From Oceanobacter sp. (GTDB lineage Bacteria; Pseudomonadota; Gammaproteobacteria; Pseudomonadales; Oceanobacteraceae): 64,000 bases of DNA. This document shows positions 37,687 through 56,363 of the stretch, one piece after another (position 1 is the stretch's first letter; every line of letters starts with the position of its first letter). The notes under the pieces are model-generated. The model was not told where the DNA came from and ran no database searches. It worked only from the letters and a program-made list of their open reading frames with translations. Both the position numbers and the translations under genes were made by a program. The DNA lies in the NCBI GenBank assembly GCA_045430275.1, contig JAILXU010000002.1, positions 6,528 through 70,527 of the forward strand, given 5' to 3'.

Positions 37687-39018
37687 ATGAATCCAATCGC
37701 TGTTTCTTCCGACACTCCCCAGACCAATCCACTGCGGGACATGGTGGTCGGCACACTGGTCTTTGTGGCCTTGCTGAGCGCCATTGCCACCCACTTGCTG
37801 GCCGATCAGCGTTTTTCCCTGATTGCCGGGGTCTGTGGCTGGACGGCAGCTCTGTTGCTGTGGCCGAAACTGAAACGCCAGCAACGCATCCAGAGCCTGA
37901 CCATGCTGACGCTGGGCGCAGCGGCCTTGCTGTGGGCCAGCCAGTTTCAGGCGCTGGACTGGCATACCGCCCTGAGTGCCAACAAGCATTTGATCGCCAT
38001 GCTCAGTGCTGTCACGTTTCTGCGGCTGGTGACGACGCACACACTGGACTCTGATCAACGCCACCCCAGCGGCCCCAAAGCGTTAAACCAGACGCTGCTG
38101 GGTGTGCATCTGTTTGGCTCGGTGATTAATTATTCGGCTCCCATGCTGATGGCAGAACGACTGACCGGCGGCCAACCGCTCAAGGCCGCACAGGCCATTG
38201 TGTTATCACGCGGCTTTGCCGCTGCAGCCTTCTGGTCGCCGTTTTTTGTCGCTATGGGCGTGGCTCTCACCAACGCACCGGGGGCGGAGCTGGTCAGTGT
38301 CAGTCTGGCCGGGCTGCCGCTGGCCGCACTGGCCTTGCTGATGACTCGGCAGGAGCTGGCAGGCCGACGCGACCTGACGCATTGTGAAGGCTATCCGATG
38401 CAAACCCAGGCGTTGAAAATTCCGGCATTGCTGGCAGTCACCATTCTGGTGGCGCATGAGCTGTTCCAGAACATCCCGGTCGTGACCCTGATCGCCATCA
38501 CCAGCCTGACGATCACCGCCTTGCTGCTGGCCCGACGCGAGCCTACCAAGGTCGCGACGCACTATGGCCGTCATATCACGACTGCGCTGCCCGCGATGCA
38601 GTCTGAACTCTGGCTGTTCCTGTCTGCCGGGGTACTGGCAACCGGCATCAATGCGGTGGTTCACAGTACCGGCTTTGCTCTGTCGATCAGCCATGCCGGA
38701 GCGCTGGAGATCAGCCTGTATCTGTTGCTCGCGTGCGTGCTGGCGCTGCTGGCGATTCATCCGGTGATCATCATTGCCAGTGCCGGTAACCTCTTGATGC
38801 CGCTGGTTGACTCTCCCAACCTGCTGGCGCTGGCCTTTCTGATGACCTGGGTGCTGGGCGTCGGTGGTTCGCCGTTTTCCGGGTTGAATCTGTCCATGGC
38901 CAGCCGCTTTCAGATGAACAATCTTGATTTCTGCCGCTGGAACATGGGCTACTCTCTGAAACTGTATCTGTTATGTGCCGCCGCCTTGTTCGTCTACGAC
39001 TGGACGGGCTGGCTTTGA
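37687..39018 (+). CDS. Multi-pass membrane protein, putative transporter
   Basis: About 12 hydrophobic segments; SRGFAAAAFWSPFFVAMG; SPFSG; RBS not obvious. Confidence 0.65.
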   Translation: MNPIAVSSDTPQTNPLRDMVVGTLVFVALLSAIATHLLADQRFSLIAGVCGWTAALLLWPKLKRQQRIQSLTMLTLGAAALLWASQFQALDWHTALSANKHLIAMLSAVTFLRLVTTHTLDSDQRHPSGPKALNQTLLGVHLFGSVINYSAPMLMAERLTGGQPLKAAQAIVLSRGFAAAAFWSPFFVAMGVALTNAPGAELVSVSLAGLPLAALALLMTRQELAGRRDLTHCEGYPMQTQALKIPALLAVTILVAHELFQNIPVVTLIAITSLTITALLLARREPTKVATHYGRHITTALPAMQSELWLFLSAGVLATGINAVVHSTGFALSISHAGALEISLYLLLACVLALLAIHPVIIIASAGNLLMPLVDSPNLLALAFLMTWVLGVGGSPFSGLNLSMASRFQMNNLDFCRWNMGYSLKLYLLCAAALFVYDWTGWL

Positions 39019-42607: not shown

Positions 42608-43420
42608 TCAACGCACAAACGGCTGAGCCAGCAAACGATCCAGACGCGCATCCCGCAGATGTCGGAAGTATGGCAACCCCAGAATCATGCTCTCGTGGCC
42701 GTCTCGTGGCTGGGCACGATAGGTGCCGAACCAGCGATCCCAGCACGACAGGTTAAAGCCAAAGTTGCTGTTGGTTTCGTCGGTATGCCAGGAATGATGC
42801 ACTCGATGCATATCCGGTGTCACTACCAGCCAGCGCAGTTTGGCATCCAGTTGTTGGGGCAAGCGAATATTGGCGTGATTGAACATCGCCATCACATTGA
42901 GCCAGATTTCAAACACCAGCACCGCCAGTACCGGCACTCCCAACACCGTGATTACCACCGCTTTGATCAGCATCGACAGCAGGATTTCCAGCGGGTGAAA
43001 ACGCAGCCCGCTGGTCACGTCCAGATCAACATCCGCATGGTGCAAGCGATGCAAACGCCATAACAACGGCACATGATGGAACAGCCAGTGTTGCGCCCAG
43101 ATCAGGCCATCGAGCACCACCAGAGCCAATATTAATGTCATCAACGGCCACGCCGATGATAGGCCCGTCAGATGAAACAGCCCCCACTGGTACTGCTCGG
43201 CCAGTAAGGCAACCCCCACTGCCGCGCCCGGAAACAGCAGCCGCAACACCAGGCTATTAACCACCACCAGCCCCAGATTATTGAGCCAGCGATAGGATTT
43301 CGGTGCATCCAGTGGGCGTCTGGGACGATACAACTCCCAGACCACCATCACGGCGAAAATGCCAACAAAAGGCACCAGTCGCAACAGCGGTTCGTGTTCC
43401 ATCCAGGTGTTCATCAGCAA
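42608..43420 (-). CDS. Sterol desaturase / fatty acid hydroxylase family protein
   Basis: His boxes HWLFH, HRLHH, HAN, HRVHH; overlaps the arsM stop. Confidence 0.88.
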   Translation of the reverse strand: MLMNTWMEHEPLLRLVPFVGIFAVMVVWELYRPRRPLDAPKSYRWLNNLGLVVVNSLVLRLLFPGAAVGVALLAEQYQWGLFHLTGLSSAWPLMTLILALVVLDGLIWAQHWLFHHVPLLWRLHRLHHADVDLDVTSGLRFHPLEILLSMLIKAVVITVLGVPVLAVLVFEIWLNVMAMFNHANIRLPQQLDAKLRWLVVTPDMHRVHHSWHTDETNSNFGFNLSCWDRWFGTYRAQPRDGHESMILGLPYFRHLRDARLDRLLAQPFVR

Positions 43421-44445
43421 CAGGGGGCCTCGTCATCCGCGACCTTGAACGGCACTCCCGAGCCACAGCCTTCAAACGCACCAAAGTGCTGGCTGAAGTC
43501 ACCAATAAACTGGAAGTGTTCGGCAAAGCGAGTGTCGTGCAGCACCATCCAGGTGTTACCACACACTGGGAAAACCCGACCACGTTCAATGGCATGGTGC
43601 GCATCCAGATCAAAACGATCAGGCGATTGCGGCACCGTGCCCTGATAAATCACCGCCTGTCCGTAGTCTTCGCATTCGCTTTCCAGTTGATCCAGTTTGA
43701 ACAGGCGATAGGTGGCCGAGAAGAACGTCAGATTCCCAATGCGGGCCGCCAGCTTGCTGTCGGTGATTTCCAGTTGCCGATCTTCCACCAGTCGGGGATC
43801 AAGAAAGCCACTGTTGTTGGCCAGATGCAGAAAGTCGTTGTAATACAGAGCGCCACCGAGGCATTCACCATACAGCACCGGATCAAACCGCACCGCTTCC
43901 GGTACCCGCCGGTCGGCGTACACATCGGAAAAGTAAAATTCACCGCCGGGTTTCAGCAGTCGATGAACGCCGTCCAGCACAGCGGCCTTGTCGGGCGACA
44001 GGTTCACCACGCAGTTGGAGACAATGACATCAAACGATTCCGGCTCCAGATCCAGTTCGTCCAGACGCTCGATATAGCCCTTGATAAAACGCACGTTATC
44101 AAACCCGAAGGCATCGGCATGCCAGGCCTGATGCTGCTCGGCCACCGCCAACTGCTCATCGGTCATATCCACGCCGACGACTTCACCGTCCGGGCCAGCC
44201 AGTTGTGCCAGCGCGTATACATCCCGGCCAGAACCGCAGCCAAGATCGAGAATGCGCCGCCCTTCCAGTTGCGTCGGACACACCAGACCACAACCGTAAT
44301 AACGGGACAGTACCTCAGGGTGAATGCGTGACAACAAGGGTTTGAGCCATTCGGGCATGGCGCTGGCATCGCAACAGGCACTGGTTTTCAGATCGTCGCT
44401 GCCTTGCAGTTGTTTACCGTAATAATCCTGAACAATTTCATGCAT
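43414..44445 (-). CDS. arsM: As(III) S-adenosylmethionine methyltransferase, long AS3MT-like form
   Basis: KTSACC, YYGCG, LDLGCGSGRD, VSNCV, GECLGGAL (positions of the four conserved Cys), CEDYGQ, C-terminal CC. Confidence 0.85.
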   Translation of the reverse strand: MHEIVQDYYGKQLQGSDDLKTSACCDASAMPEWLKPLLSRIHPEVLSRYYGCGLVCPTQLEGRRILDLGCGSGRDVYALAQLAGPDGEVVGVDMTDEQLAVAEQHQAWHADAFGFDNVRFIKGYIERLDELDLEPESFDVIVSNCVVNLSPDKAAVLDGVHRLLKPGGEFYFSDVYADRRVPEAVRFDPVLYGECLGGALYYNDFLHLANNSGFLDPRLVEDRQLEITDSKLAARIGNLTFFSATYRLFKLDQLESECEDYGQAVIYQGTVPQSPDRFDLDAHHAIERGRVFPVCGNTWMVLHDTRFAEHFQFIGDFSQHFGAFEGCGSGVPFKVADDEAPCC

Positions 44446-44492
44446 AACGGGAGGCTCCCAGGTGAGCGTGTCGTGACCAAAGATGTCTATCA

Positions 44493-44518
44493 GTCGTCAG
44501 TCAGACCCATTTCTTACA
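44493..44518 (-). promoter_or_regulatory. Candidate ECF-sigma promoter of arsM (TGTAAGAAA-N14-GAC)
   Basis: Same motif and spacing as upstream of arsS; GAC lies 48 nt before the ATG. Confidence 0.55.
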
Positions 44519-45158
44519 GTGAATATCGGGCGCGCCAGCTTGCGGGCAGATGAATCAGATCGCCGGGTTCATCAATATCATGCAGAGCGTCCAACTCTTG
44601 CAGGCTCCAGTCCAGAGCCTCAACCCGCTGGCGCGTCAGCTCGGCAACGACGGACGTGCTCCAGGGAATGTCCTCGAACAGAGAATCATCGTATTGATGC
44701 AGCCCCAACAAGGAATAACCGCCGTCACTGACCGGCACCAGACAGGCTTCGTGCTGCTCCAATGCCTGAGCCGCCTGCTGCAAACGCTCGGCAGTCAGTC
44801 CGGGGCAATCGGTGCCCATCAGAATCACCGGCTCGCCCTGTTGCGTCACCCGCTGCACCACTCGCCCCATGCGCTGGCCAAGATCGCCTTCGCCCTGATA
44901 CGACCAGTTCAGGATTTCCGGCAAAGACAGTATTTTCCACACGGGATGATGCACCGACGGGCTGACACACAACTCAACCGGGCCAACACGAGCGGCCAGT
45001 GCCTGCTGAATGGTGTGTTGCAGCAGACGGCGCGCCAGTTGTGCCGAGCCGTCCAGCCCCAGAGCGGGAATCAGGCGGGTTTTGGCAAACCCCGGCAAAG
45101 GCGCTTTGGCAAAAATAACCACTCGGGGGCGAATCGATGTCGATGGAGAAATAGTCAT
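44514..45158 (-). CDS. TIGR04282/DUF2064-type arsenosugar-cluster transferase
   Basis: IFAKAPLPGFAKTRL, QGEGDLGQRM, MGTDCP, PVSDGGYSLLG, PWST, DIDEPGD; start placed at ATG 45158 (ATGA overlap). Confidence 0.85.
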   Translation of the reverse strand: MTISPSTSIRPRVVIFAKAPLPGFAKTRLIPALGLDGSAQLARRLLQHTIQQALAARVGPVELCVSPSVHHPVWKILSLPEILNWSYQGEGDLGQRMGRVVQRVTQQGEPVILMGTDCPGLTAERLQQAAQALEQHEACLVPVSDGGYSLLGLHQYDDSLFEDIPWSTSVVAELTRQRVEALDWSLQELDALHDIDEPGDLIHLPASWRARYSL

Positions 45159-45919
45159 ATGTAGAGCTTCGCTAACTGTTCTGCAGAAACACCGCGCCAG
45201 TACGCCCAACGCAGTCGCCACATCAAAAAAATCGTGCGCCAGACACCGTAGTCCATCCAGCGACGCCCTGACGTTGTCACCTGAGCACACAAACACTGTG
45301 GATGCTCATAGCGACGCAGGCGTTTGGACAACTCAATGTCTTCCATCAGAGGTTGATCCGGGAAGCAGCCCACCTGCTCAAAGCGGTCACGCCGCATAAA
45401 CATCGCCTGATCGCCCGTGGCAATGCCACTGAGGCGAGAACGCAGGTTGATCATAAAACCGACTACGCGCAGCATGTGGGCCGAGCCACTGACAGAGACG
45501 TCAAAACGGCCCCAACTGCCGTGCTCCAGTGCTTGCTGCAGGTGCTTTATAGCCTGTGGTGGCAAGCGGGTGTCGGCGTGCAGAAACAGCAAACATTCAC
45601 CGTAGCTGGCTTGCGCTCCGGCATTCATTTGCCGAGCACGGCCACGAGACGAATGCACCACCCGGAATCCGGCGGCTTCCGCCATACTCACCGAGGCATC
45701 CTCACTACCGCCATCCACCAGCACGATTTCAAGGGCGGGGTATTCTGCTTGCAGAGAAGACAAATGCACCAGCAACTCTGGCAGACTGCTCTGCTCGTTC
45801 AGCATCGGGACGATGACCGATAGAGATGCAGGCACAGACGACAGAACAGACACAGACGACAGAACAGACACAGACGACAGTGACCCGGCGCTAGCGGGTT
45901 TGATTAAGTTGCCAGTCAT
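45155..45919 (-). CDS. TIGR04283-type GT2 glycosyltransferase
   Basis: SVIVPMLNE, VDGGSED, GRARQMNAGA, LFLHADT, GIATGDQAMF, LMEDIELS, SGRRW; start uncertain (45919 or 45934). Confidence 0.85.
   Translation of the reverse strand: MTGNLIKPASAGSLSSVSVLSSVSVLSSVPASLSVIVPMLNEQSSLPELLVHLSSLQAEYPALEIVLVDGGSEDASVSMAEAAGFRVVHSSRGRARQMNAGAQASYGECLLFLHADTRLPPQAIKHLQQALEHGSWGRFDVSVSGSAHMLRVVGFMINLRSRLSGIATGDQAMFMRRDRFEQVGCFPDQPLMEDIELSKRLRRYEHPQCLCAQVTTSGRRWMDYGVWRTIFLMWRLRWAYWRGVSAEQLAKLYI
45833..45880. repeat. 18-bp tandem repeat x2.7 encoding (LSSVSV)n
   Basis: CACAGACGACAGAACAGA at 45833 and 45851, partial copy at 45869. Confidence 0.85.
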
Positions 45920-46727
45920 AATCCAGAAATCCAATATCCAGTTCTTCCTTCAGCAAACGCGCCTTGTCAGTGGCTGACAACCCCAGTGCATCGGCATAGT
46001 GAGCCAGAAAATCTTCCAGCCTCTGATAACCGTGCCAGCCGCGTTCAAAGTCCTGGCGATACCATTTGAAAATGGACGACACCATCAGGTCGTCACCTGT
46101 CAGCCGGTTCTGCTGACGATTGGCCAGAAACAGACGCGTTTGCTGCTCTAGCTGTTCTTTCAGGTGTGCGCCGGTATAGGCTTCGGCACGCAGTGGCGGG
46201 CAACCAATGCTGGCGCAGTTAACAGCAAAGTGAATCAGCGGGTTGTTGTAACGTCCCGAACCTCGAATCAGGTCGTGTTCGATATTATCCAGCGTCTGCT
46301 TGCTGCCCAGCAGCGGTGCCAGCGCCCGGCTCCAGGGCGAGCGCAGCCAGTTTCCCAGATCCTTGATCGACTCCAGATCCGGCCATGTGCCCAGAATCAG
46401 CTCCACCGTCCAGGCGTTGTAGGCATTGATCAGAAACGCCAATTGCTCGTCGTGTGACCAGCCATCAAACTGCGCCTGTTTAACCGCCGCCAGATCATCC
46501 AGATAGCGCTTCAGCACCTGCCGCTGATCGGCCACGCCCTGATAATTCACGGCGGTGGATTGGCCACCGTCATCAGACACCACGTTGGCCTGCAACAAGC
46601 GATTCCAGGCGCTGTGGTCAAACGCTTCTGCTGCCCCAGATTCTCTTACCCCTTCGGCCAGAGAAGCAGAACACCACAAACACAGTGCCAGCATCAGGCT
46701 GCTGTAACTCTTATGCTTAGTGAGCAT
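45891..46727 (-). CDS. Exported DUF547 domain protein
   Basis: Signal peptide; LAFLINAYNAWT, LDNIEH, IHFAVNCASIGCP, SSIFKWY, YDWQLN; start placed at ATG 46727. Confidence 0.88.
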   Translation of the reverse strand: MLTKHKSYSSLMLALCLWCSASLAEGVRESGAAEAFDHSAWNRLLQANVVSDDGGQSTAVNYQGVADQRQVLKRYLDDLAAVKQAQFDGWSHDEQLAFLINAYNAWTVELILGTWPDLESIKDLGNWLRSPWSRALAPLLGSKQTLDNIEHDLIRGSGRYNNPLIHFAVNCASIGCPPLRAEAYTGAHLKEQLEQQTRLFLANRQQNRLTGDDLMVSSIFKWYRQDFERGWHGYQRLEDFLAHYADALGLSATDKARLLKEELDIGFLDYDWQLNQTR

Positions 46728-48897
46728 CGCCGCGTCTCCAACTGTGGTATTTTTCCAGCCAGCCCAGAATGCGCTCGGGCGCATGAGCACGCTTCCACTC
46801 GCCCGCCGCGTATTTGTTGGCTTCGGCCCAGGTCGGATAGGCATGAATGGTGCCGAGTATCTTGTTCAGGCCAAGGCCGTGTTTCATCGCCAGCACGAAC
46901 TCAGCCATCAGATCACCGCCGTGTTCGCCCACAATGGTGACGCCCAGAATCCGATCCTTGCCCGGTGTGGTCAGCACCTTGACGAAACCGTGCGCCGCAC
47001 CGTCGGTGATAGCACGATCCAGATCATCCAGACCGTAACGTGTGACTTCGTATTCAATCCCCTGGGCCTGTGCGTCCTGTTCATTCAGACCCACACGGGC
47101 AATTTCCGGGTCAAGGAAGGTCGTCCAGGGAATCACCCGGTAATCCACCTTGAATTTTTTCACGTGACCAAACAGCGCATTGACCGCCACGTACCAGGCC
47201 TGATGCGCTGCCACGTGGGTGAACTGGTATGGCCCAGCCACATCACCCGCGGCGTAAATATTCGGATACAGGGTTTCCAGATACTCGTTGGTGACGATGG
47301 TGCGATTGGTTTCAATCCCCAGTTCTTCCAGACCGTAGCCTTGCAAGCGTGCTTCCCGCCCGACGGCACAGAGTAACTGGTCGAATTCAATCGCCTGTTC
47401 CGTCGCCGGGTCTGATGAACCGGATGGCATCACTATCAAACGCTTGTTGCCGGTCTCGGCATCGAGTTCGCAACGCACCGCCTGATGGCCGGTCATCAAG
47501 CTCACACCATCGCGGCTCAGTGATGCCGCTGCCAGTTCGGAGACTTCTTTATCTTCACGGGCCAGCACCCGTGCTCCCCGCTCCACCTGAGTGACCTGCG
47601 AACCCAGTCGGGCAAAGCTCTGGGACAACTCACAGCCAATCGGGCCGCCGCCGAGCACCACCAGGCGCTTCGGCGCGTCGTCCAGTTCGGCAAAGGTTTC
47701 CCACAAGGTGTCACTGGTGACGTAGCCGGTGTCTTCGATACCCGGCAGTGGTGGTACAAACGGTCTGGCTCCGGTGGCCAGCACAATCGAACGCGTGGTC
47801 AAACGCTGCACGCCACCGTCATTCAGGTGAATTTCCACCGTCCACGGGTCAATCACCCGCGCGTAGCCTTGCAGCACTTCCACGCCCAGATTGGTGTAAC
47901 GCTCCACGCTGTCGTGAGGCTCAATCGCCTTGATCACGTCATGCACTCGCGCCATCACCTTGCGGAAGGAAAAACGCGCCGGTTGCGATTCCAGCCCGTA
48001 ATGATCTGCATGCTGCATCTGGTGCGCGACCCGAGCGCTTTTGATCAGCGCCTTGCTCGGCACACAGCCGTAATTCAGACAATCGCCGCCCATTTTGTTG
48101 GACTCGATCAGCGTGACTTTGGCTTTTACCGCCGCCGCAATGTAAGCGCTCACCAGACCACCAGCACCGCCGCCAATCACCACCAGATTACGATCAAACT
48201 GCTTCGGCCTCGTGTGTTTGGCGTACACCCGGCGCGCCTTGATCACCGACAGAATTTTTTTGGCGATCAGCGGGAAAATGCCCAGCAGCGCGAACGACAA
48301 CAGCAGCGACGGTGACAGGATGCCCGACAGACTGTCGAGCTGAGCCAACTGGGTTCCGGCATTCACGTACACCAGCGTGCCTGCCAGCATCCCAACCTGA
48401 CTGACCCAGTAGAAGGTCGCGGCCCTGATTGGCGTCAGTCCCATCAGCAAATTAATCAGAAAGAACGGGAACACCGGCACCAGACGCAGCGTGAACAGAT
48501 AGAAGGCACCGTCTTTTTCGATCCCGTCGTTCACCGCCTGCAAACGATCACCAAAGCGCTTCTGCACGCTATCGCGCATCAGATAACGCGACGCCATAAA
48601 CGCCAGCGTTGCGCCAATCGAACTGGCAAAAGACACCAGTACCGTTCCCCAGGCCAGTCCAAACAAGGCACCCGCCGCGATGGTCATAACCGCTGCACCG
48701 GGCAGTGAAAGTGCTGTCACCAACACATACAACAACAGAAACAGACCACCCGTCAGTAACGGTGCGGCACTGCGCTGGGCTTCAAAATCCGCCAATCCCT
48801 GTTTCAATCCATCCAGGGTCAACAGCAGATGCACATCCAGTGCAAAAAAAGCCACGATGGCGACGCCAATCGCAAGCAGTAAGGCAATTTTTTTCAT
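46717..48897 (-). CDS. TVP38/TMEM64 (VTT/DedA) membrane domain fused to a class I pyridine nucleotide-disulfide oxidoreductase
   Basis: SLPGAAV and LRLVPVFPFFLIN; then GGGAGG, GGDCLNYGCVPSK, GGGPIGCE, AAGDV, HAYPT. Confidence 0.9.
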   Translation of the reverse strand: MKKIALLLAIGVAIVAFFALDVHLLLTLDGLKQGLADFEAQRSAAPLLTGGLFLLLYVLVTALSLPGAAVMTIAAGALFGLAWGTVLVSFASSIGATLAFMASRYLMRDSVQKRFGDRLQAVNDGIEKDGAFYLFTLRLVPVFPFFLINLLMGLTPIRAATFYWVSQVGMLAGTLVYVNAGTQLAQLDSLSGILSPSLLLSFALLGIFPLIAKKILSVIKARRVYAKHTRPKQFDRNLVVIGGGAGGLVSAYIAAAVKAKVTLIESNKMGGDCLNYGCVPSKALIKSARVAHQMQHADHYGLESQPARFSFRKVMARVHDVIKAIEPHDSVERYTNLGVEVLQGYARVIDPWTVEIHLNDGGVQRLTTRSIVLATGARPFVPPLPGIEDTGYVTSDTLWETFAELDDAPKRLVVLGGGPIGCELSQSFARLGSQVTQVERGARVLAREDKEVSELAAASLSRDGVSLMTGHQAVRCELDAETGNKRLIVMPSGSSDPATEQAIEFDQLLCAVGREARLQGYGLEELGIETNRTIVTNEYLETLYPNIYAAGDVAGPYQFTHVAAHQAWYVAVNALFGHVKKFKVDYRVIPWTTFLDPEIARVGLNEQDAQAQGIEYEVTRYGLDDLDRAITDGAAHGFVKVLTTPGKDRILGVTIVGEHGGDLMAEFVLAMKHGLGLNKILGTIHAYPTWAEANKYAAGEWKRAHAPERILGWLEKYHSWRRGDAH

Positions 48898-48929
48898 TAT
48901 TCAGACTCCATCCAAGACTCGATTTGAAA

Positions 48930-49880
48930 TCACAGAGCACCGCCACAACTGCTGCCCTGGCCCGCCGTACAGCCATAACAATGACCCGCCACAGCGACCG
49001 GACAGGTGTTCACATCACTTTCCAGCAGGTCTTGCAGATGCCGTTTGCCAGCACCCAGTGGTATCTCCAGTTGCTGGTTGAAATCGCAGTCGTACAAGCG
49101 CCCCTGCCAATCCACACTGACCAGCGAACGACACATCACCTGTTCCAGATTGTCGACCTGATAGCTGTCGCGCAGCAGTTGCATATAGTCCTGAAACTGG
49201 CCTTTGGAAATCAGCGTGGAGCCAAAACGCTTGATCGGCATATTGGCAAGTGCAAACAGATGGTTGAATTCGATATTGAAGTGCTGGCGCAGCTCGCGGC
49301 GATAGTCGGCTTCCAGTTGTTGCTGGTTGGGTGGCAGTGAGGGGCCTTGCGGGTTGTACACCAGATTCAGCGACAAACCGCTGTCAGGCTGGCCATACCC
49401 CAACGCATTAAGCGCCTGCAAACCGGCAATGCTCTTGTCGAAGACGCCCTGGCCGCGCTGCTTGTCGACGTTATCGAGGGAATAACAGGGCAGCGAGGCC
49501 ACCACATCCACACGGTGGTGAGCGAGAAATTCTGCTAAACCCTCCTGCTCTGGTTCAAACAGAATCGTCAGGTTACAACGGTCAATCACCTGCACGCCTG
49601 CTTCCGTGGCCTGCTCCACCAGATAGCGGAAATCCGGGTGCATTTCTGGTGCGCCGCCGGTCAAATCGAGCGTTTTGATCTGGCGTGCTTTCAACACCGG
49701 CACAATCAAATCCAGCGTTTCCCGGCTCATCATTTCGGTACGATGAGGCCCGGCATTGACGTGACAATGCAAACAGCGCTGATTGCACTGATAGCCCAGA
49801 TTGACTTGCAAGGTGTCCAACGGCTGACGCTGCAATGCCGGAAAATCCGTTACTTCCAGCAAGGGTAAAGTGGCGTGCAT
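48930..49880 (-). CDS. arsS: Arsenosugar biosynthesis radical SAM protein
   Basis: LQVNLGYQCNQRCLHCHV, LTGGAPE, DRCNL, LNLVYNP, VMCR, YDCDFNQ, HCYGCTAGQGSSCGGAL. Confidence 0.9.
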   Translation of the reverse strand: MHATLPLLEVTDFPALQRQPLDTLQVNLGYQCNQRCLHCHVNAGPHRTEMMSRETLDLIVPVLKARQIKTLDLTGGAPEMHPDFRYLVEQATEAGVQVIDRCNLTILFEPEQEGLAEFLAHHRVDVVASLPCYSLDNVDKQRGQGVFDKSIAGLQALNALGYGQPDSGLSLNLVYNPQGPSLPPNQQQLEADYRRELRQHFNIEFNHLFALANMPIKRFGSTLISKGQFQDYMQLLRDSYQVDNLEQVMCRSLVSVDWQGRLYDCDFNQQLEIPLGAGKRHLQDLLESDVNTCPVAVAGHCYGCTAGQGSSCGGAL

Positions 49881-49924
49881 AAAGAGGCTCCGGCTAGCGA
49901 CGATTCATCGGGAATATTCCCTTT

Positions 49925-49950
49925 GTCTGACAATAGCCGGGTTTCTTACA
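49925..49950 (-). promoter_or_regulatory. Candidate ECF-sigma promoter of the arsS operon (TGTAAGAAA-N14-GAC)
   Basis: Same motif and spacing as upstream of arsM; GAC lies 45 nt before the ATG. Confidence 0.55.
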
Positions 49951-49973
49951 CTTCAGAGGTGTTTTTTTTCAGG

Positions 49974-51464
49974 TTATTGCTTTGGGTGGCGCAGCAATTG
50001 TTCCACTAACAATCCCAATGTTTGCATCGCCCGATGAGTTTGATCATTCCAGGGATGAGCAATATTCAACCGAATACAGTGATCAAACTGATCGCTGTTA
50101 CTGAACAACCCGCCTGGCACGACTGAAATAGAGCGCTCACGGGCCAGATAATACAGCCGCTCGGCACTGACTGAACGAGGCAATGCCAGCCACATGGTGT
50201 AACCGCCTTTGGGCGTACTGAAACGCGTTTCATCCGGGAAATACTGTTCAATAGCGCCCACAAACTGCGGCAGATTACTGGCCAGTTGACGGCGCAATTG
50301 CCGCAAATGACGGTCGTAGTGACTGTTTTCCAGATACGAATGCACCACCCGCTGTGACAGACTGGAAGAAGAAAACGTAGTGAAGGTTTGCTGATCAATC
50401 ACCTGCTGATACCAGCGCCCCGGCACACACCAGCCAACCCGCAGCCCGGCGGCCAGCGTCTTGGAAAACGACGAGCAGTACATCACCCGACCATCACGAT
50501 CAAACGCCTTGATGGCCGAATAACTGCCATCCGTCTGGGCCTGTTTGCGCGCCGCTGCTGACGTTTCTGCAAAACTGATCTCGCCGTAAATATCGTCTTC
50601 GATGATGCCAACGTCGTACTGCTGGGCCAGCTCGACCAGTTGCTTCTGTTTGGCGGTGGGCATCAGCGCTCCGGTCGGGTTGGAAAAACGCGCTGTCAAA
50701 GCAATCAGACGCACGGGCCACTGGCTCAGCGCCAGTTGCAGCGCTTCCACACTCATGCCGGTTTCCGGGTCGGTGGGAATCTCGATCACCTTCAGCCCCA
50801 TCATGCTGGCCAGTTGCAGAAAGCCGTAATAGCAGGGCGATTCCACCGCCACCAGATCTCCCGGTTTGGTCGCAGCCCTAAGACACAGGGTAATGGCCTC
50901 GGCGCAGCCATTACTGATGATGATGTCGTCACTGACGCAATGAATCCCCGCGTTGCTCATGCGCACCGCCAACTGTTGCCGCAGGCCTTCAAAGCCCGGC
51001 GCAAACTGGTACTCCAGCACCTGCCTCAACTGAAACCGGCTGGTTTGCTGGATATGTCTCTGCAACTGTCGTTGTGGCAACAGGCTTGAATCCGGGATGG
51101 CGGCACCGAAATTCACCAGACTGGGGCGACTCAATTGCGCCAGCATGTTGCTGATCAGCGCCGACTTAGTCACTTCCGACGGCTGTTCTTCCGGACGAGA
51201 CAGAGGCAACTGGGCACGGCGATACTCGGGCCGCCGATTGGAGCACACGTAGTAACCCGACTGAGGCCGGGCACTCAGCCAGCCCTGATCTTCCAATCGG
51301 GCATACGCCTGCGAAACCGTCGAGACACTGACGCCCCGCAACGTGCTCATACGGCGCACACTCGGGACTTTCTGACCGACCGGATACACACCGGCCTGAA
51401 TATCAGCGCTGAGCTGATCGGCCAGTTGCAGATACAAGGGATGTTTCAGTTGTGGATTCAGCAT
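49974..51464 (-). CDS. MocR-family regulator (GntR HTH plus PLP aminotransferase-like domain)
   Basis: LYLQLA, PSVRRM, VSVSTVSQAY, ARPQSGYYV, IEDDIYGE, SSFSKTLAAGLRVGW; start placed at ATG 51464. Confidence 0.92.
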   Translation of the reverse strand: MLNPQLKHPLYLQLADQLSADIQAGVYPVGQKVPSVRRMSTLRGVSVSTVSQAYARLEDQGWLSARPQSGYYVCSNRRPEYRRAQLPLSRPEEQPSEVTKSALISNMLAQLSRPSLVNFGAAIPDSSLLPQRQLQRHIQQTSRFQLRQVLEYQFAPGFEGLRQQLAVRMSNAGIHCVSDDIIISNGCAEAITLCLRAATKPGDLVAVESPCYYGFLQLASMMGLKVIEIPTDPETGMSVEALQLALSQWPVRLIALTARFSNPTGALMPTAKQKQLVELAQQYDVGIIEDDIYGEISFAETSAAARKQAQTDGSYSAIKAFDRDGRVMYCSSFSKTLAAGLRVGWCVPGRWYQQVIDQQTFTTFSSSSLSQRVVHSYLENSHYDRHLRQLRRQLASNLPQFVGAIEQYFPDETRFSTPKGGYTMWLALPRSVSAERLYYLARERSISVVPGGLFSNSDQFDHCIRLNIAHPWNDQTHRAMQTLGLLVEQLLRHPKQ

Positions 51465-51523
51465 GGCTCTCGACGCTCCGTTACGCACACCCGAAAGCTT
51501 ACTCTTCGCTACCACACAGCAAC

Positions 51524-51581
51524 CAGTACAGTTGGTCGTTTTTTTGGCAGTTCAGTTGATTGTTCTGCTCATTCTGTACTG
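51524..51581. promoter_or_regulatory. Candidate MocR operator (direct and inverted 8-mers)
   Basis: CAGTACAG 51524-31, CAGTTCAG 51548-55 and inverted CTGTACTG 51574-81 in the divergent intergenic region. Confidence 0.5.
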
Positions 51582-51669
51582 CCCAAATCCTGACCGACTG
51601 CCGCTGATGTACGCTCGCCCGATCCGTCATTCTGTTTGGCAACCAGCAATCAGAGTGGAGTTTCTGCTG

Positions 51670-52644
51670 ATGTTATCGAGATTACGCACCCCGCTACCAA
51701 CGGGAATCAACCCGGTATCAAACCCGGCATTGCCAGCATTAAGCAGCACCCGGGTATGGGGGTCAGCGCTGTTGGCTATCAGCCTGTTTGCCCTCACCGT
51801 GCCTATGACCAGCACCGCACTGGAAGGCTGGAGCACGCTGTCGATTGGTTCCGGGCGCGGTGTGATCGGTGGTGCCATTGCCATTCTCGCAATCCAGTTT
51901 TCCGGCTGGAAGTGGCCCGACCGACACAGTTTGCTGTGGTTGGCACTGGCCACCCCCGGTCTGGTCTTCGGTTTCCCTTATCTGCTGACCTACGCCCTAC
52001 AAGACGCCAGCAGCGCAGACCTGGGCGTCGTACTGGCGGCTCTGCCACTGCTGACAGCGATCTTCTCCGCAATACTGTCGCGCCAGAATCTGCCTCGGCG
52101 TTTCTGGGGCTGGGCCATTGCCGGAATGCTGGTCAGTTGCGGGTACTTTCTGCTGCAGTCGGACTGGGCCTTGCAGGGACAGAGCCAGAGCACACAACTG
52201 GTGATGCTGGTGGCCTTGCTCAGCGCTTCGTGGGGCTATGCCGCCGGAGCCAAAGCTGCCCGGACACTGGGAGGCTGGCAAACCGTGTGCTGGATGCAGG
52301 CACTCAGCGCACCGCTCTCGGCCATTCTGTTCGGATATTCACTGGGACAACCCGAGTACACGCTGGGCTTGCCACAGGCAGACGCGCTGCTGGCACTGCT
52401 GTATCTGGGTATCTTCAGTCAGTTGATCGGCTTTCGATTCTGGTTCCAGGCACTCGCGGTTGATACCGCTCGCGTCAGCCAGATCCAGCTATTGCAGCCT
52501 CTGATCACCCTTACCGCTCTGGTGCTGTTCTGGAATGCCAGCATCGGTCTGTGTCAATGGCTGGCAGCTCTGGCGATTCTGCTGTGCGTTGTGGGGGCGG
52601 TGAGGATAAAACACGCAGATACTGATGCACCGCAACACGGCTAA
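51670..52644 (+). CDS. EamA/DMT family transporter
   Basis: 10-TM pattern; GFPYLL, AALPLLTA, SWGYAAGA, QIQLLQP; start placed at ATG 51670 after GGAG. Confidence 0.85.
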   Translation: MLSRLRTPLPTGINPVSNPALPALSSTRVWGSALLAISLFALTVPMTSTALEGWSTLSIGSGRGVIGGAIAILAIQFSGWKWPDRHSLLWLALATPGLVFGFPYLLTYALQDASSADLGVVLAALPLLTAIFSAILSRQNLPRRFWGWAIAGMLVSCGYFLLQSDWALQGQSQSTQLVMLVALLSASWGYAAGAKAARTLGGWQTVCWMQALSAPLSAILFGYSLGQPEYTLGLPQADALLALLYLGIFSQLIGFRFWFQALAVDTARVSQIQLLQPLITLTALVLFWNASIGLCQWLAALAILLCVVGAVRIKHADTDAPQHG

Positions 52645-52745
52645 TATTGTTCTGTCACCTGTTTCCTTTATGATCAGCATGGTTTTGAACCAGCTCAGCC
52701 ATGCTGGCCTTATTTGACTCTGTTCATGGAATACAAGGAATTGTG

Positions 52746-55700
52746 ATGGAACAACACTACTCCACATCTTCAATATTTAAAAAATCCCTGCTGGCTGCCG
52801 CCATCGGTACCACGATTGCACTGACAGGCTGTAGCGGTAACAGCAGCAGTGATGATGACAAGAAAGCTTCTGAAGCCAGCGTCTCACTCAGTGGTTACGC
52901 CATCAAGGGTGTGATGATCAATGCCAATATCAAGGTCTATGATCTGGCAACCAATACACTGCTGAAAGAAACCACCACGGATGCACAGGGGCAATATTCC
53001 CTCTCTGACATTACCGTTGAAAGCGAAACCGTCGGTGCCCTCAAGGTGGTGATGACCACCAACACTAACACCACCACCAAATGCGACTCCGCCATTGGCT
53101 GCAGCGATGGCAGCGGCAATGATGTCTCGTTCGGCCAGACCTATGCCTTCCATGATCCCGGCTTTCAATTAACAGCAATTCTGGCTGATCCCAAAGACGC
53201 CACCAGCGCCTCATTGATGGTGACACCACTGACCCATATGTCAGCCGCTCGTATCGAAAAAGAAGGCGTCCTGACCAACGAAGCCATCAGTACGGTTAAT
53301 CGTGAAACGGCTGCCCTGATGGGTCTTGGCAATGTCAACATTGCCACCTTGCAGCCGGTTGATCTGGCCAGCCCGAACAGTGCAACAGCAGACGGTAATG
53401 CCGTTAAATACGGTGCCATGCTGGCTGCCGTTGCGACCGTGGCCAAGGAAAAAGGCCTGTCACTGCAGGATATGGTTCAGCAGCTGTCTGACAACTACGC
53501 CAACAGCAAGGGGCTGAAGTCTCACTCCAGCAACGATCAGGAAACCGACCTGGCAGACTTGTTTGCCGCTGCGGTCGAGTCACTTAATACAGCAGAAAGC
53601 ACGTTCAACATTGACATCGATAACACCGCAGAAGTAGTCATGATGTCAAAACGCAACGATGCCGCTAATGCCACGGTCGATGATGTCACCGTGATCGACA
53701 GCAGCAACACTGGCGAAGTTGATCCAACCCTGACACCACAAGAGCAAGCCACGTTAAAGGGCATGGCGCTGCTGGAAGACCTGAACACATGGAATGACAC
53801 CCAACTGGACATTCGTTCCCAACTGTTGGCTGAAGATGGCGAACTGGCCCAATACGCCAACGATCTGGATATGATCGCCACAGCTGTACAGGAACAAACC
53901 GATCTTGCCCGTGCCTTCAGCACCCTGGCTTACGGATTCACAGAGCAGGAAGTGGTTGAAACAGAAACCCATTGCTCCCAGTGGCATTACGGGACTTGCC
54001 AACAATGGAAAGAATACGAATATTCATGGACGGAAGAACAGCAGAGCGGCATTCTGGCAGGCGTTCCTAATCTGATTCGGGAATTTGCCTACCTGACCAA
54101 CCGGATTGAAGGCAATCACGCTAAACTGGAAGCCACCTTCGACAGTGAGACACAGCGCTACACGCTGACGCTGGATGCCCAGCTGGTCGCCCAATACTGG
54201 GATGAAGAATACTTTGCCGAATCCTACGGCTTTATCTACGGCTATGCTGGTGCCGATATCGATAACACCGGTGTACTGAACATCAGCTACGCCATGAACG
54301 ACGAAGACGAGATCACCGATATTCGTTTCAGTGGCACCTCCGGCTACCCGGAAGATGGCAAGGCCATTGATCTTCAAGCCCTTCAGATGCAACCAACCCT
54401 GTCCCTGGATGATGCGCACTACGCGGTCACCATCTCCCAACTGAGCCTGAACGACACCACAACCACCAGCTTGTTGAACAAGGAACTGGAAGTTGGCATC
54501 AGCTACACCGCGACGGGTGAACTGAGCATGGAGTTTGCCGATCTTGAAAGTATGGCAGAGACCCTGTTCTTTATGGGCGATGGCAGCAGCGGGCTATTGA
54601 ACATGACTCTGACTCTGGATTCCGAAGTTTCAGAGAGCGTTGAAGACGCTGCGGCTGGTGGCTTCTCCCCAGCATCCGGTGAGCTGGACGTGAATGTATC
54701 ATTCAAGCGTGAGTCACTTGAGGCTGAAGCCACGGCTGCAATGACAGCGAAAGTGGATGTCCGTAACAGTAACGGGGACTTTATTACCGGTCAGCTGACA
54801 GGTTCTGGTCAGGCTTCATCCCCGACCAAAGAAAACATCACGGCAGGTGTGAACCTCAGTTTTACCGGCAGCCTATCACAAGGTGTACACGATGCTGATC
54901 ACGCCTTGAATGGTGCCAGCACTCGCTTCGACGGTACGCTGACACTGGATGTTCCTGATATCCAAAACGATCAACTCAGTACCTATACGACCACCTTCGA
55001 TGGCGAATTGAGTGTGCAGGATGCTGCGGGAACCGGTGCTGCTTTTGATGGCAACGCCAAACTGGCGATGGAACACCCCAAAACAGCAAGCGGTCGTCCC
55101 CTCTACTCCGAAAGAGCGAGAAACTACATTGATTATTACTGGTTTAATACAGAGATAGAGACAACCACAGAGGCAACCATTCCAACCGAAGTGGCTCTGA
55201 CTGGCAAACTAACCGCTAGCCGTGAGAATACCACCAAGGCAGAACTGGATATCAAGGCCAGTCTGATGCTGGATAATCTGGCTCCCGTTGTTGAACGCCT
55301 GAACCAGGGCGAAATCAGCGTTGGACATGAGATTGGTACGCCATCCAGCCTGATTGGTGGTGATGCGACCTTGCATGAGCAGGATAATCGCATCACCTTT
55401 GAACCGCGCCGGTATGCAGAAGAAGATCTGATCACCTTGGCAAGCGCATACTCTCAAACACTGGGTTTAACCAATGCACGCTACTTTACCCGCCAATGGG
55501 TTCAAGACGCGGTTTCCGAACTTTCTGTTAATGCCTCAAGTTGCACACCGGATGATGGTGTCTACTTTTGTGCTTTGAATATCACAGAAACCAGCTATTT
55601 GTATTCCAGCCGCAATGCCGAGCCTAAAATTCCGAGGGTTTTCAAAAAACTGCAAAGCATCTCATTTACCACCAGTGAATTTAATGCCGGTGACCATCGT

Positions 55701-56363
55701 TCACCGGCCAAATGGCAAGCCAAAGCCATCGCTGCAGCGGATGAAGATGTGTGGTTATATCGCTCCGTTGCTATTGAATCTGACCAGGGATATGTCTGGT
55801 CAGCAAGCGATGGTGACAGCCTCAATGACGATACCATTCAGCCAATACAAGTCCGGGACTATCAGCTGGTTGATGGCCTTACTGAGACCATTGCCAGCGG
55901 TGAAACCGCTGACAGCTATGTCGGCATTGCAGCCAGCCTTGAAATTGCACTGGATGCCTTTGACTATGAAGATGCATCCATTCAGCTGGTCACCGATCGT
56001 ACCGGCCAGCAAGGTATAGATGGCCAACTGACGTTGAAGTACGGTGATCGTAGCATCGACATGGTATTAATCCTTGAAGATAACCAGCTGGATACCAGCA
56101 AAACAGCTCTTACGATCAGCAACAACGATACCGAGATGAAACTGACCGCTGAATGTATTGATCTGGCTTCCGAAAAACAGACCACAATGAGTGCTCTGTC
56201 CAAGTGTGACAATGACGATCTGAACTTCGGTGGCACCATCACGGTGGATGGCCTTGAAATTGGCAAACTGGAAGACCGCAATGGTCTGCCGGTCTTTGTC
56301 TTTGGCGATGATACCGAGTATCAAATGATCGCAACTCCCGCTTTCCTGATTTCACGTCAGTAA
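52746..56363 (+). CDS. Very large acidic surface lipoprotein of unknown function
   Basis: KKSLLAAAIGTTIALTG-C lipobox, Ser-rich tether, SGYAIKG...NANIKVYD start of first domain; ~1200 aa open frame followed by a terminator. Confidence 0.8.
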   Translation: MEQHYSTSSIFKKSLLAAAIGTTIALTGCSGNSSSDDDKKASEASVSLSGYAIKGVMINANIKVYDLATNTLLKETTTDAQGQYSLSDITVESETVGALKVVMTTNTNTTTKCDSAIGCSDGSGNDVSFGQTYAFHDPGFQLTAILADPKDATSASLMVTPLTHMSAARIEKEGVLTNEAISTVNRETAALMGLGNVNIATLQPVDLASPNSATADGNAVKYGAMLAAVATVAKEKGLSLQDMVQQLSDNYANSKGLKSHSSNDQETDLADLFAAAVESLNTAESTFNIDIDNTAEVVMMSKRNDAANATVDDVTVIDSSNTGEVDPTLTPQEQATLKGMALLEDLNTWNDTQLDIRSQLLAEDGELAQYANDLDMIATAVQEQTDLARAFSTLAYGFTEQEVVETETHCSQWHYGTCQQWKEYEYSWTEEQQSGILAGVPNLIREFAYLTNRIEGNHAKLEATFDSETQRYTLTLDAQLVAQYWDEEYFAESYGFIYGYAGADIDNTGVLNISYAMNDEDEITDIRFSGTSGYPEDGKAIDLQALQMQPTLSLDDAHYAVTISQLSLNDTTTTSLLNKELEVGISYTATGELSMEFADLESMAETLFFMGDGSSGLLNMTLTLDSEVSESVEDAAAGGFSPASGELDVNVSFKRESLEAEATAAMTAKVDVRNSNGDFITGQLTGSGQASSPTKENITAGVNLSFTGSLSQGVHDADHALNGASTRFDGTLTLDVPDIQNDQLSTYTTTFDGELSVQDAAGTGAAFDGNAKLAMEHPKTASGRPLYSERARNYIDYYWFNTEIETTTEATIPTEVALTGKLTASRENTTKAELDIKASLMLDNLAPVVERLNQGEISVGHEIGTPSSLIGGDATLHEQDNRITFEPRRYAEEDLITLASAYSQTLGLTNARYFTRQWVQDAVSELSVNASSCTPDDGVYFCALNITETSYLYSSRNAEPKIPRVFKKLQSISFTTSEFNAGDHRSPAKWQAKAIAAADEDVWLYRSVAIESDQGYVWSASDGDSLNDDTIQPIQVRDYQLVDGLTETIASGETADSYVGIAASLEIALDAFDYEDASIQLVTDRTGQQGIDGQLTLKYGDRSIDMVLILEDNQLDTSKTALTISNNDTEMKLTAECIDLASEKQTTMSALSKCDNDDLNFGGTITVDGLEIGKLEDRNGLPVFVFGDDTEYQMIATPAFLISRQ

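Follow-up and report, generated by a model that had tools for sequence, protein, structure and literature searches.

Two probable ECF-type promoters in front of arsS and an arsM-like gene of Oceanobacter sp.

Which kind of regulator controls the arsS gene cluster of Oceanobacter sp.? The cluster is located on a stretch of 64,000 nucleotides (assembly GCA_045430275.1, contig JAILXU010000002.1, positions 6,528 to 70,527), which was analyzed at full length and is termed the window below. On its minus strand seven genes, from arsS to a fatty-acid hydroxylase gene, form a compact operon. They abut or overlap, save for a 68-nt gap before the gene of an ArsM-like methyltransferase, and this gap contains the second of two copies of a motif, the first of which precedes arsS. 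The downstream genes share their "ars" names (ArsS, ArsM-like) with ArsR-repressed ars operons. Unlike in these operons, no ArsR-like open reading frame (ORF) was found in the 64 kb (none at E<=1 using phmmer with E. coli ArsR as query), none of the seven operon genes encodes the efflux or reductase proteins ArsB, Acr3 or ArsC, and no palindromic operator is present. Genes for an extracytoplasmic function (ECF) sigma factor or an anti-sigma factor were also not found in the 64-kb window, and the sigma factor would therefore be encoded elsewhere. An original prediction, made from the letters of the window, had proposed just such an arrangement, an ECF sigma factor from elsewhere in the genome instead of ArsR, and the gene content of the window agrees with it.

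First, the motif pair itself was inspected. The minus strand reads TGTAAGAAACCCGGCTATTGTCAGAC at 49950-49925 on the arsS side and TGTAAGAAATGGGTCTGACTGACGAC at 44518-44493 on the arsM side. From the C of GAC to the A of the ATG there are 45 nt for arsS (49880) and 48 nt for the arsM-like gene (44445), so the two identical motifs and their distances were found as predicted. The pattern TGTAAGAAA-N14-GAC has only these two matches in 64 kb when both strands are searched and up to one mismatch is allowed. The chance expectation is 0.12, and two or more matches occurred in none of 100 shuffles. The view of GAC as the second block was correct with regard to a bipartite -35/-10 element, but the real -10 block comprises 4-7 nt, CGAC(TAA), and the whole element is longer than noted, TGTAAGAAA-N13/14-CGACTAA in its conserved form. 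While the arsM site carries the consensus CGAC, the first -10 base of the arsS site is off-consensus (AGAC). The putative ECF-type promoter of arsS, P_arsS, was thus placed at 49922-49950 on the minus strand, with the -35 block TGTAAGAAA at 49950-49942, a spacer of 13 nt and the -10 block AGACAAA at 49928-49922. The putative internal ECF-type promoter, P_arsM, occupies 44490-44518 on the same strand, with TGTAAGAAA at 44518-44510, again a 13-nt spacer, and CGACTGA at 44496-44490. When the two upstream regions were aligned, identity was confined to the two blocks. The housekeeping sigma-70 pattern TTGACA-N16-18-TATAAT had no minus-strand match upstream of arsS or arsM. An A8 tract (49962-49969, minus strand) lies 12-19 nt upstream of the P_arsS -35 block and might, by its position, act like an UP element. 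On the arsM side the overlap with the preceding gene was verified, as the DUF2064/TIGR04282 gene ends with the TAA within TGTAAG (44516-44514). A stop codon inside the -35 block was considered as a conserved design and dropped; beyond the window it recurred only in locus L060.

Is the element kept where the cluster is kept? In a set of 185,579 species-representative genomes, the best match to the ArsS of the window had an identity of only 80%. The comparison covered 80 gamma- and betaproteobacterial loci encoding ArsS relatives (67-80% identity), on which the genes of the cluster were located. A blind count of dyads (5-mer, spacer, 4-mer) in 79 arsS upstream regions ranked TGTAA-N18-CGAC (22 sequences) and TGTAA-N17-CGAC (15 sequences) at the top, and shuffled sets reached a maximum of 4. 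TGTAA was followed by CGAC exactly 17-18 nt downstream in 37 of its 52 occurrences in these regions. The orthologue consensus reads TGTAAGAAA, 13-14 nt, CGACtaA, and the -10 block precedes the start codon by a median of 52 nt. Using a score of >=17 bits for site calls, sites were found before 39 of 79 arsS and 9 of 31 arsM orthologues, and the predicted element is conserved at orthologous promoters. No site was called before the internal genes of the cluster (0/57 GT2, 0/52 DUF2064, 0/18 DUF547; 0/127 in all). The motif always points toward the downstream gene at promoter distance, and divergent gene pairs carry two separate copies. The placement before arsS and arsM, as opposed to none before 127 internal genes, therefore indicates that the element marks the heads of transcription units and that a second unit at arsM is recurrent, in line with the internal arsM promoter of the original prediction. 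A matrix built from the sites of other genomes only gave 26.3 bits for the arsM site, the best in the window, and 23.3 bits for the arsS site. The next best position in the window reached 11.4 bits, and the maximum in 20 Markov-simulated windows was 17.7 bits.

The related loci also point to the sigma factor family. In 17 of the 80 loci an ECF sigma gene lies no more than 10 kb away from arsS, often directly upstream. Its product contains Sigma70_r2 and r4_2 domains, scores above the NCBIfam cutoffs of PRK12544 and TIGR02943, and is followed by a zf-HC2 anti-sigma protein of 55-80 aa (~76 aa) with the zinc-binding signature C-x25-H-x3-C-x2-C. The motif was present in all 17 loci with a linked ECF gene versus 28 of 61 loci without an ECF gene nearby. 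It stands directly before the sigma gene in four loci (L012, L019, L037, L068), and before sigma-containing operons of the order TIGR03169 oxidoreductase-sigma-anti-sigma (L043 at 6889, L060 at 5224) or arsS-sigma (L057, L058) in others. From the sequences of these related loci, the sigma operon appears to be autoregulated from the same motif, as is typical for ECF systems; the window itself holds no such operon. Together with the conserved orientation at orthologous promoters, these pairs beside arsS bear out the proposed ECF control.

Further genes are headed by the motif in related loci, namely those for methylthioadenosine (MTA) phosphorylase, the SelD-associated oxidoreductase TIGR03169, HvfA/HvfX, DUF2282, and SelL-related or thioredoxin-like proteins. 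Back-to-back copies separate MTA phosphorylase from the TIGR03169-oxidoreductase/sigma operon (L001 3346/3352, L027 5592/5612, L043 6872/6889, L060 5203/5224), and arsS from HvfX, HvfA, DUF2282 or YaeF-like genes (L001 9718/9792, L012 9820/9879, L046 9833/9898). More motif pairs divergent from arsS were seen in L060 (9887/9919), L076 (6883/6925) and L078 (9857/9909). Due to these back-to-back copies, genes of bufferin-type metallophores and MTA phosphorylase are regarded as co-regulated with arsS. TIGR03169, which elsewhere is fused to or located beside the selenophosphate synthetase SelD, is the first gene of the sigma operon in several betaproteobacterial loci (L043 7057-8166, L041, L048, L060, L063), which hints at a selenium connection of the regulon. 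A metagenome scan for TGTAAGAAA-N13/14-CGACTAA, unbiased with respect to the downstream gene, returned ECF genes as the commonest downstream ORF (at least 18), besides HvfX/DoxX (~20), ArsS (6) and ArsM (2); further hits were HvfA/DUF2282 (4), a ZAS anti-sigma, a thioredoxin and a periplasmic MsrA. Secreted proteins with long NPCAAK or KCAPKCAP cysteine repeats flanking a c-type-cytochrome-like core were also seen behind the motif (L103, L189, L071 at 16504).

How does the element compare with known ECF promoters? The sigmaE consensus of Neisseria, from the NMB2140-2145 operon and msrAB, consists of a -35 GTMAGBWTT (GTAAGGTT), a spacer of 12-13 nt and a -10 CGTCTAAH (PMC2893595). In this frame the window sites read GTAAGAAAC-N12-AGACAAAG for arsS and GTAAGAAAT-N12-CGACTGAT for arsM. 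Blocks of the GTAAG and the CG(T/A)CTAA type are hence present in both, as GTAAGAAAT and CGACTGA for arsM and as GTAAGAAAC and AGACAAA for arsS. Counted from the 9-mer GTAAGAAAN, the spacer is 12 nt at both window sites; among the orthologues, 15 sites have 12 nt and 24 sites have 13 nt. The system shares with sigmaE (NMB2144)/MseR of N. meningitidis and N. gonorrhoeae the GTAAG-type -35 block (GTAAGGTT there, GTAAGAAA here), the 12-13-nt spacer and the CGxCTAA -10 block (PMC2893595, PMC3240639). It further shares an AT-rich upstream tract, as reported for Neisseria, an autoregulated sigma operon in the related loci, and a short cytoplasmic anti-sigma with H-x3-C-x2-C, MseR being a ZAS anti-sigma peptide (PMC2893595). 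The DoxX/DUF692/DUF2063 operon of the Neisseria regulon is also carried by related loci. Different from Neisseria is the third -10 position, with CGAC here versus CGTC there. Moreover, the regulon of Neisseria is tiny (msrAB and its own operon) and without an arsS/arsM cluster, and the sigma gene is here not at the locus.

A second relative is RpoE2 of H. influenzae with its 67-aa ZAS anti-sigma HrsE, an ECF group 13 system which is induced by HOCl and H2O2 and targets msrAB, a gene for a drug/metabolite transporter (DMT) and the doxX operon (PMC7907618); msrAB and the doxX operon require RpoE2 and are switched on by HOCl. Similar to this system, the metagenome contig L162 carries DoxX-HvfA-DUF692-DUF2063-ECF-antisigma; at its start an A/T-rich tract, comparable to the one upstream of P_arsS, is followed by exactly TGTAAGAAA-N13-CGACTAA. 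Compared with the arsS-linked pair, the sigma of L162 shows 46% and the anti-sigma 51% identity. In contrast to the cluster studied here, the RpoE2 targets (msrAB, dmt, mtsZ, doxX operon) include no organo-arsenic or selenium genes, and no promoter consensus has been published (PMC7907618). The EamA/DMT gene of the window, described below, is without a motif, although a DMT transporter is a member of the RpoE2 regulon. ECF18 (RpoT) was rejected as the family, with its published consensus GCATCC/CGTAT and its RskA-like anti-sigma. Among further ECF systems, RsrA of Streptomyces, the ZAS paradigm, is a zinc-thiolate redox switch in the cytoplasm, from which the ECF sigma SigR is set free, and the SigR promoters (GGAAT-N18-GTT) are unlike the window motif. 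SigmaX of Bacillus subtilis recognizes TGTAAC-N17-CGAC, with hexamers nearly those of the window motif; its anti-sigma is a membrane protein and its regulon concerns the cell envelope.

Based on these comparisons, both sites are probably ECF-type promoters of the class served by sigmaE/RpoE2-like ("group 13") sigma factors, which are held inactive by a small cytoplasmic zinc-binding (ZAS) anti-sigma peptide. The two motifs are very probably read by a stress-activated ECF sigma, which would place the arsS cluster in an oxidative/thiol-stress regulon rather than under a classical arsenic repressor. Neither the promoter class nor the sigma family is new; what is new is that the ArsS/ArsM-like cluster and several companion genes belong to the regulon. 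An earlier report linking arsS-type clusters to an ECF sigma was not found in the literature searched, the coverage of which was incomplete.

Several points weigh against this assignment. The "group 13" label was taken from domain architecture and sequence similarity and not from hidden Markov models for ECF classification. A cognate sigma in the source genome is assumed, with none encoded in the 64-kb window; contigs of four related runs gave no match of >=80% to the ECF gene of L001, the closest locus, which is uninformative. The -10 block of arsS in the window is AGAC versus CGAC in 37 of 39 orthologous sites. About half of the arsS orthologues are without the motif, and some of these have other ECF-like motifs instead. 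Such motifs were CTGTAAC-N16/17-GCGTCTA in Paraperlucidibaca and TTTGTAACAAA in Zhongshania (L053, L067, L073; L008, L013, L018), and a different, divergently transcribed ECF sigma was seen in L004; the ArsS cluster seems to be wired to several ECF systems across lineages. The start positions given below are predictions only, and the RNA runs consulted for them (X17, X20, X25, X26) consist of assembled Logan contigs of ~95% relatives with neither 5'-end nor strand information, some of the contigs being clearly DNA-like (23 kb). One of them, from X25, crosses P_arsS into the upstream MocR gene, which may reflect read-through or DNA. Finally, a second, unrelated-looking ECF family of 171-175 aa starts 6-30 nt behind the exact TGTAAGAAA-N13/14-CGACTAA on at least nine metagenome contigs. 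A membrane protein is encoded next to it, on the downstream side, and the ZAS peptide is missing (e.g. L123 8393-8943, L101, L113, L160, L167, L180, L196). The motif alone does therefore not identify the sigma.

This second family feeds the best surviving alternative, that the promoters are genuine ECF promoters read here by another family, either the 171-175-aa one or the sigmaF/NrsF type (ECF16), in response to another signal, e.g. periplasmic metal stress. SigmaF of Caulobacter crescentus recognizes a similar element, GTAACC-N16-CGAA, and under metal stress governs operons of the DUF2282-DUF692-DUF2063-DoxX (bufferin) type (PMC3511200), and the GTAA...CGA skeleton is common to both promoters. 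The window, moreover, offers no sigma by which to choose between ECF families. However, every ECF gene within 10 kb of a motif-bearing arsS (17 loci) belonged to the TIGR02943 family with a ZAS partner, while NrsF is a six-helix membrane anti-sigma. The sigmaF consensus deviates at the discriminating positions, with CC for GA in the -35 block and CGAA for CGAC, and it was not matched by the window sites, which read GTAAGA and CGAC or AGAC. We regard this alternative as unlikely, with a modest share of the probability left to it.

Less probable still is that only the internal site matters. P_arsS would then be a decayed, weak copy, arsS would be transcribed by read-through from the MocR gene or from an unrecognized promoter, and the ECF sigma would serve chiefly arsM and the hydroxylase gene. 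The off-consensus AGAC could be read as such decay. A terminator was not found in the arsS or arsM upstream regions, including the interval between the MocR gene and arsS, and the X25 contig, a metatranscriptome contig of a relative, spans this junction. Such contigs, however, may contain DNA, and P_arsS still reaches a score far over the null. AGAC and TGAC variants occur at other arsS promoters (L075, L049). Strain comparisons speak against decay as well: in public runs of ~95-99% relatives no variant fell into the P_arsS element, whereas its flanks vary, including one strain which differs in the A8 tract. P_arsM showed one variant in the spacer (44503) and none in the -35 or -10 block.

The motif could also be the operator of a conventional transcription factor and not a promoter, e.g. 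of the adjacent MocR-type GntR/PLP regulator (49974-51515, minus strand), the gene of which stops 23 nt short of the arsS-side motif. Such an operator is very improbable, because the motif has neither dyad nor direct-repeat nor other internal symmetry, is strictly oriented toward its gene at promoter distance, and occurs in two separate oriented copies at divergent genes, and because MocR or EamA genes lie beside arsS in none of the 80 loci. The motif also heads sigma-factor genes. That the motif pair resembles itself by chance or stems from a local duplication, and has no function, as the mere two copies in the window and the shared leader sequence GGAGCCTC could suggest, is effectively refuted by the comparative data, namely the low chance expectation, the unrelated sequence between and around the blocks and the conservation of the element across dozens of genera.

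What would transcription from probable ECF-type promoters look like at this locus? Both leaders contain GGAGCCTC, at 49884-49891 before arsS and at 44451-44458 before the arsM-like gene (both minus strand), followed 3-5 nt on by TTATG. The shared leader ending had been noticed originally and is present at both genes; as a signal it was discarded, since in orthologues only GGAG, the Shine-Dalgarno sequence of either gene, is kept. The extra CCTC is probably a coincidence. No Rfam leader element matched at E<=1, and the predicted leaders are unstructured, folding no better than shuffles. In Neisseria, sigmaE transcripts start at a conserved A 6 nt past the -10 block, in agreement with the mapped gonococcal msrAB start (PMC2893595). 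By this rule, the arsS operon would start at the A residues of 49915-49918 (minus strand), 3-6 nt past the -10 block, giving a leader of ~35-38 nt, and the arsM-hydroxylase transcript at 44484-44486 (minus strand), with a leader of ~39-41 nt. One RNA-run contig of a ~95% relative stops at 44473, 28 nt before the arsM ATG, and has ~3x the depth of the upstream contig, a weak hint at a start in this region.

We propose the following sequence of events. A sigmaE/RpoE2-like ECF sigma, with its gene outside the window, would be sequestered by a ZAS anti-sigma, as suggested by the homologues. Oxidation or modification of the anti-sigma thiols would release the sigma; HOCl and H2O2 act in the characterized relatives, and soft metalloids are conceivable. 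The holoenzyme would then initiate ~6 nt past the -10 blocks, near A49915-49918 and A44484-44486. P_arsS would drive all seven closely spaced genes, beginning with arsS and ending with the hydroxylase gene. P_arsM carries the full consensus -10 versus the rarer AGAC of P_arsS, and would therefore, independently of P_arsS, add transcripts for the last two genes, those of the ArsM-like methyltransferase and the hydroxylase. Purely by analogy with the homologues, oxidative or thiol-reactive stress is a more likely inducer than arsenic itself. The original prediction had also allowed for an inducer other than arsenic, and the characterized sigma relatives, which answer to HOCl/H2O2 and not to arsenic (PMC7907618, PMC2893595), suggest the same.

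The seven operon genes, all on the minus strand, fit the arsenosugar-type ArsS cluster of NCBIfam, with TIGR04167, TIGR04283 and TIGR04282 all exceeding their cutoffs. The first gene, arsS (48930-49880), encodes a radical-SAM/DUF3641 protein (TIGR04167 with 473.9 bits vs. a cutoff of 300; PF12345, PF04055). It is followed by a gene for a VTT/DedA membrane domain fused, according to profile matches, to a flavin adenine dinucleotide-dependent pyridine-nucleotide-disulfide oxidoreductase (46717-48897). The next gene encodes a DUF547 protein (45891-46844) with an uncertain start; the ATG at 46727 would yield a signal-peptide-like N-terminus. A TIGR04283-family GT2 glycosyltransferase (45155-45934; 277.3 bits vs. 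182) and a TIGR04282/DUF2064 transferase-like protein (44514-45296; 205.4 bits vs. 134) follow, the latter probably starting at 45158, where its ATG and the GT2 stop codon overlap (ATGA). The ArsM-like S-adenosylmethionine methyltransferase (43414-44445; PF13847) has Cys pairs at both ends and remained under every NCBIfam ArsM cutoff, with 89.2 of 400 bits for NF038099 (arsenosugar type) and 167.9 of 263 bits for NF008823 (arsenite methyltransferase). Its sequence shows a Met-His start as in ArsS, a Cys-Cys pair near the N-terminus and a Pro-Cys-Cys end. It is best called ArsM-like only, and by its sequence arsenic, selenium or another substrate may be used. The last gene encodes a membrane protein of the fatty-acid hydroxylase/sterol-desaturase family (42608-43420; PF04116), and the next gene is convergent.

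Upstream of the operon, the MocR gene is paired with a divergent EamA/DMT transporter gene (51463-52644, plus strand), which has no ECF motif before it. At the DUF547/GT2 junction an 18-bp tandem repeat, CAGACACAGACGACAGAA x2.9 at 45829-45880, encodes SVSVLSSVSVLSS on the minus strand. Its copy number varies among ~95-99% relatives by in-frame deletions of 18, 36 and 54 nt (runs X1, X6, X20, X25). Two long ORFs on the plus strand are without an NCBIfam match (52701-56363, 1220 aa; 37687-39018, 443 aa). Genes for tRNAs and Rfam families at gathering score were not found in the whole 64 kb.

An ECF-type promoter for TIGR04167 clusters suggests concrete candidate inducers, namely HOCl, H2O2, diamide, As(III), selenite and Cu. 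Expression could be forced via over-expression of the sigma or deletion of the ~76-aa anti-sigma, leading to the identification of the product. The co-regulated set, with MTA phosphorylase, the SelD-linked oxidoreductase and bufferin-type metallophores, hints at the chemistry involved. As to annotation, "ars" names imply neither ArsR nor arsenic control. With these members, a regulon described until now only for Neisseria and Haemophilus (msrAB and the doxX operon) widens to a far broader, environmental repertoire. Tentatively, and as a possibility which we would not yet favor, the ArsS cluster of heterotrophic gamma- and betaproteobacteria may be the effector arm of a ZAS/ECF regulon for oxidative, hypochlorite and soft-metal stress, and no arsenic-handling pathway. 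If this were true, its co-regulated partners would be bufferin-type copper-binding ribosomally synthesized and post-translationally modified peptides (HvfA/HvfX, DUF2282), MTA phosphorylase, TIGR03169 and thioredoxin/Msr, and its product, an organo-sulfur, -selenium or -arsenic sugar or lipid, would be synthesized when needed, as a protective compound of the envelope or an antioxidant.

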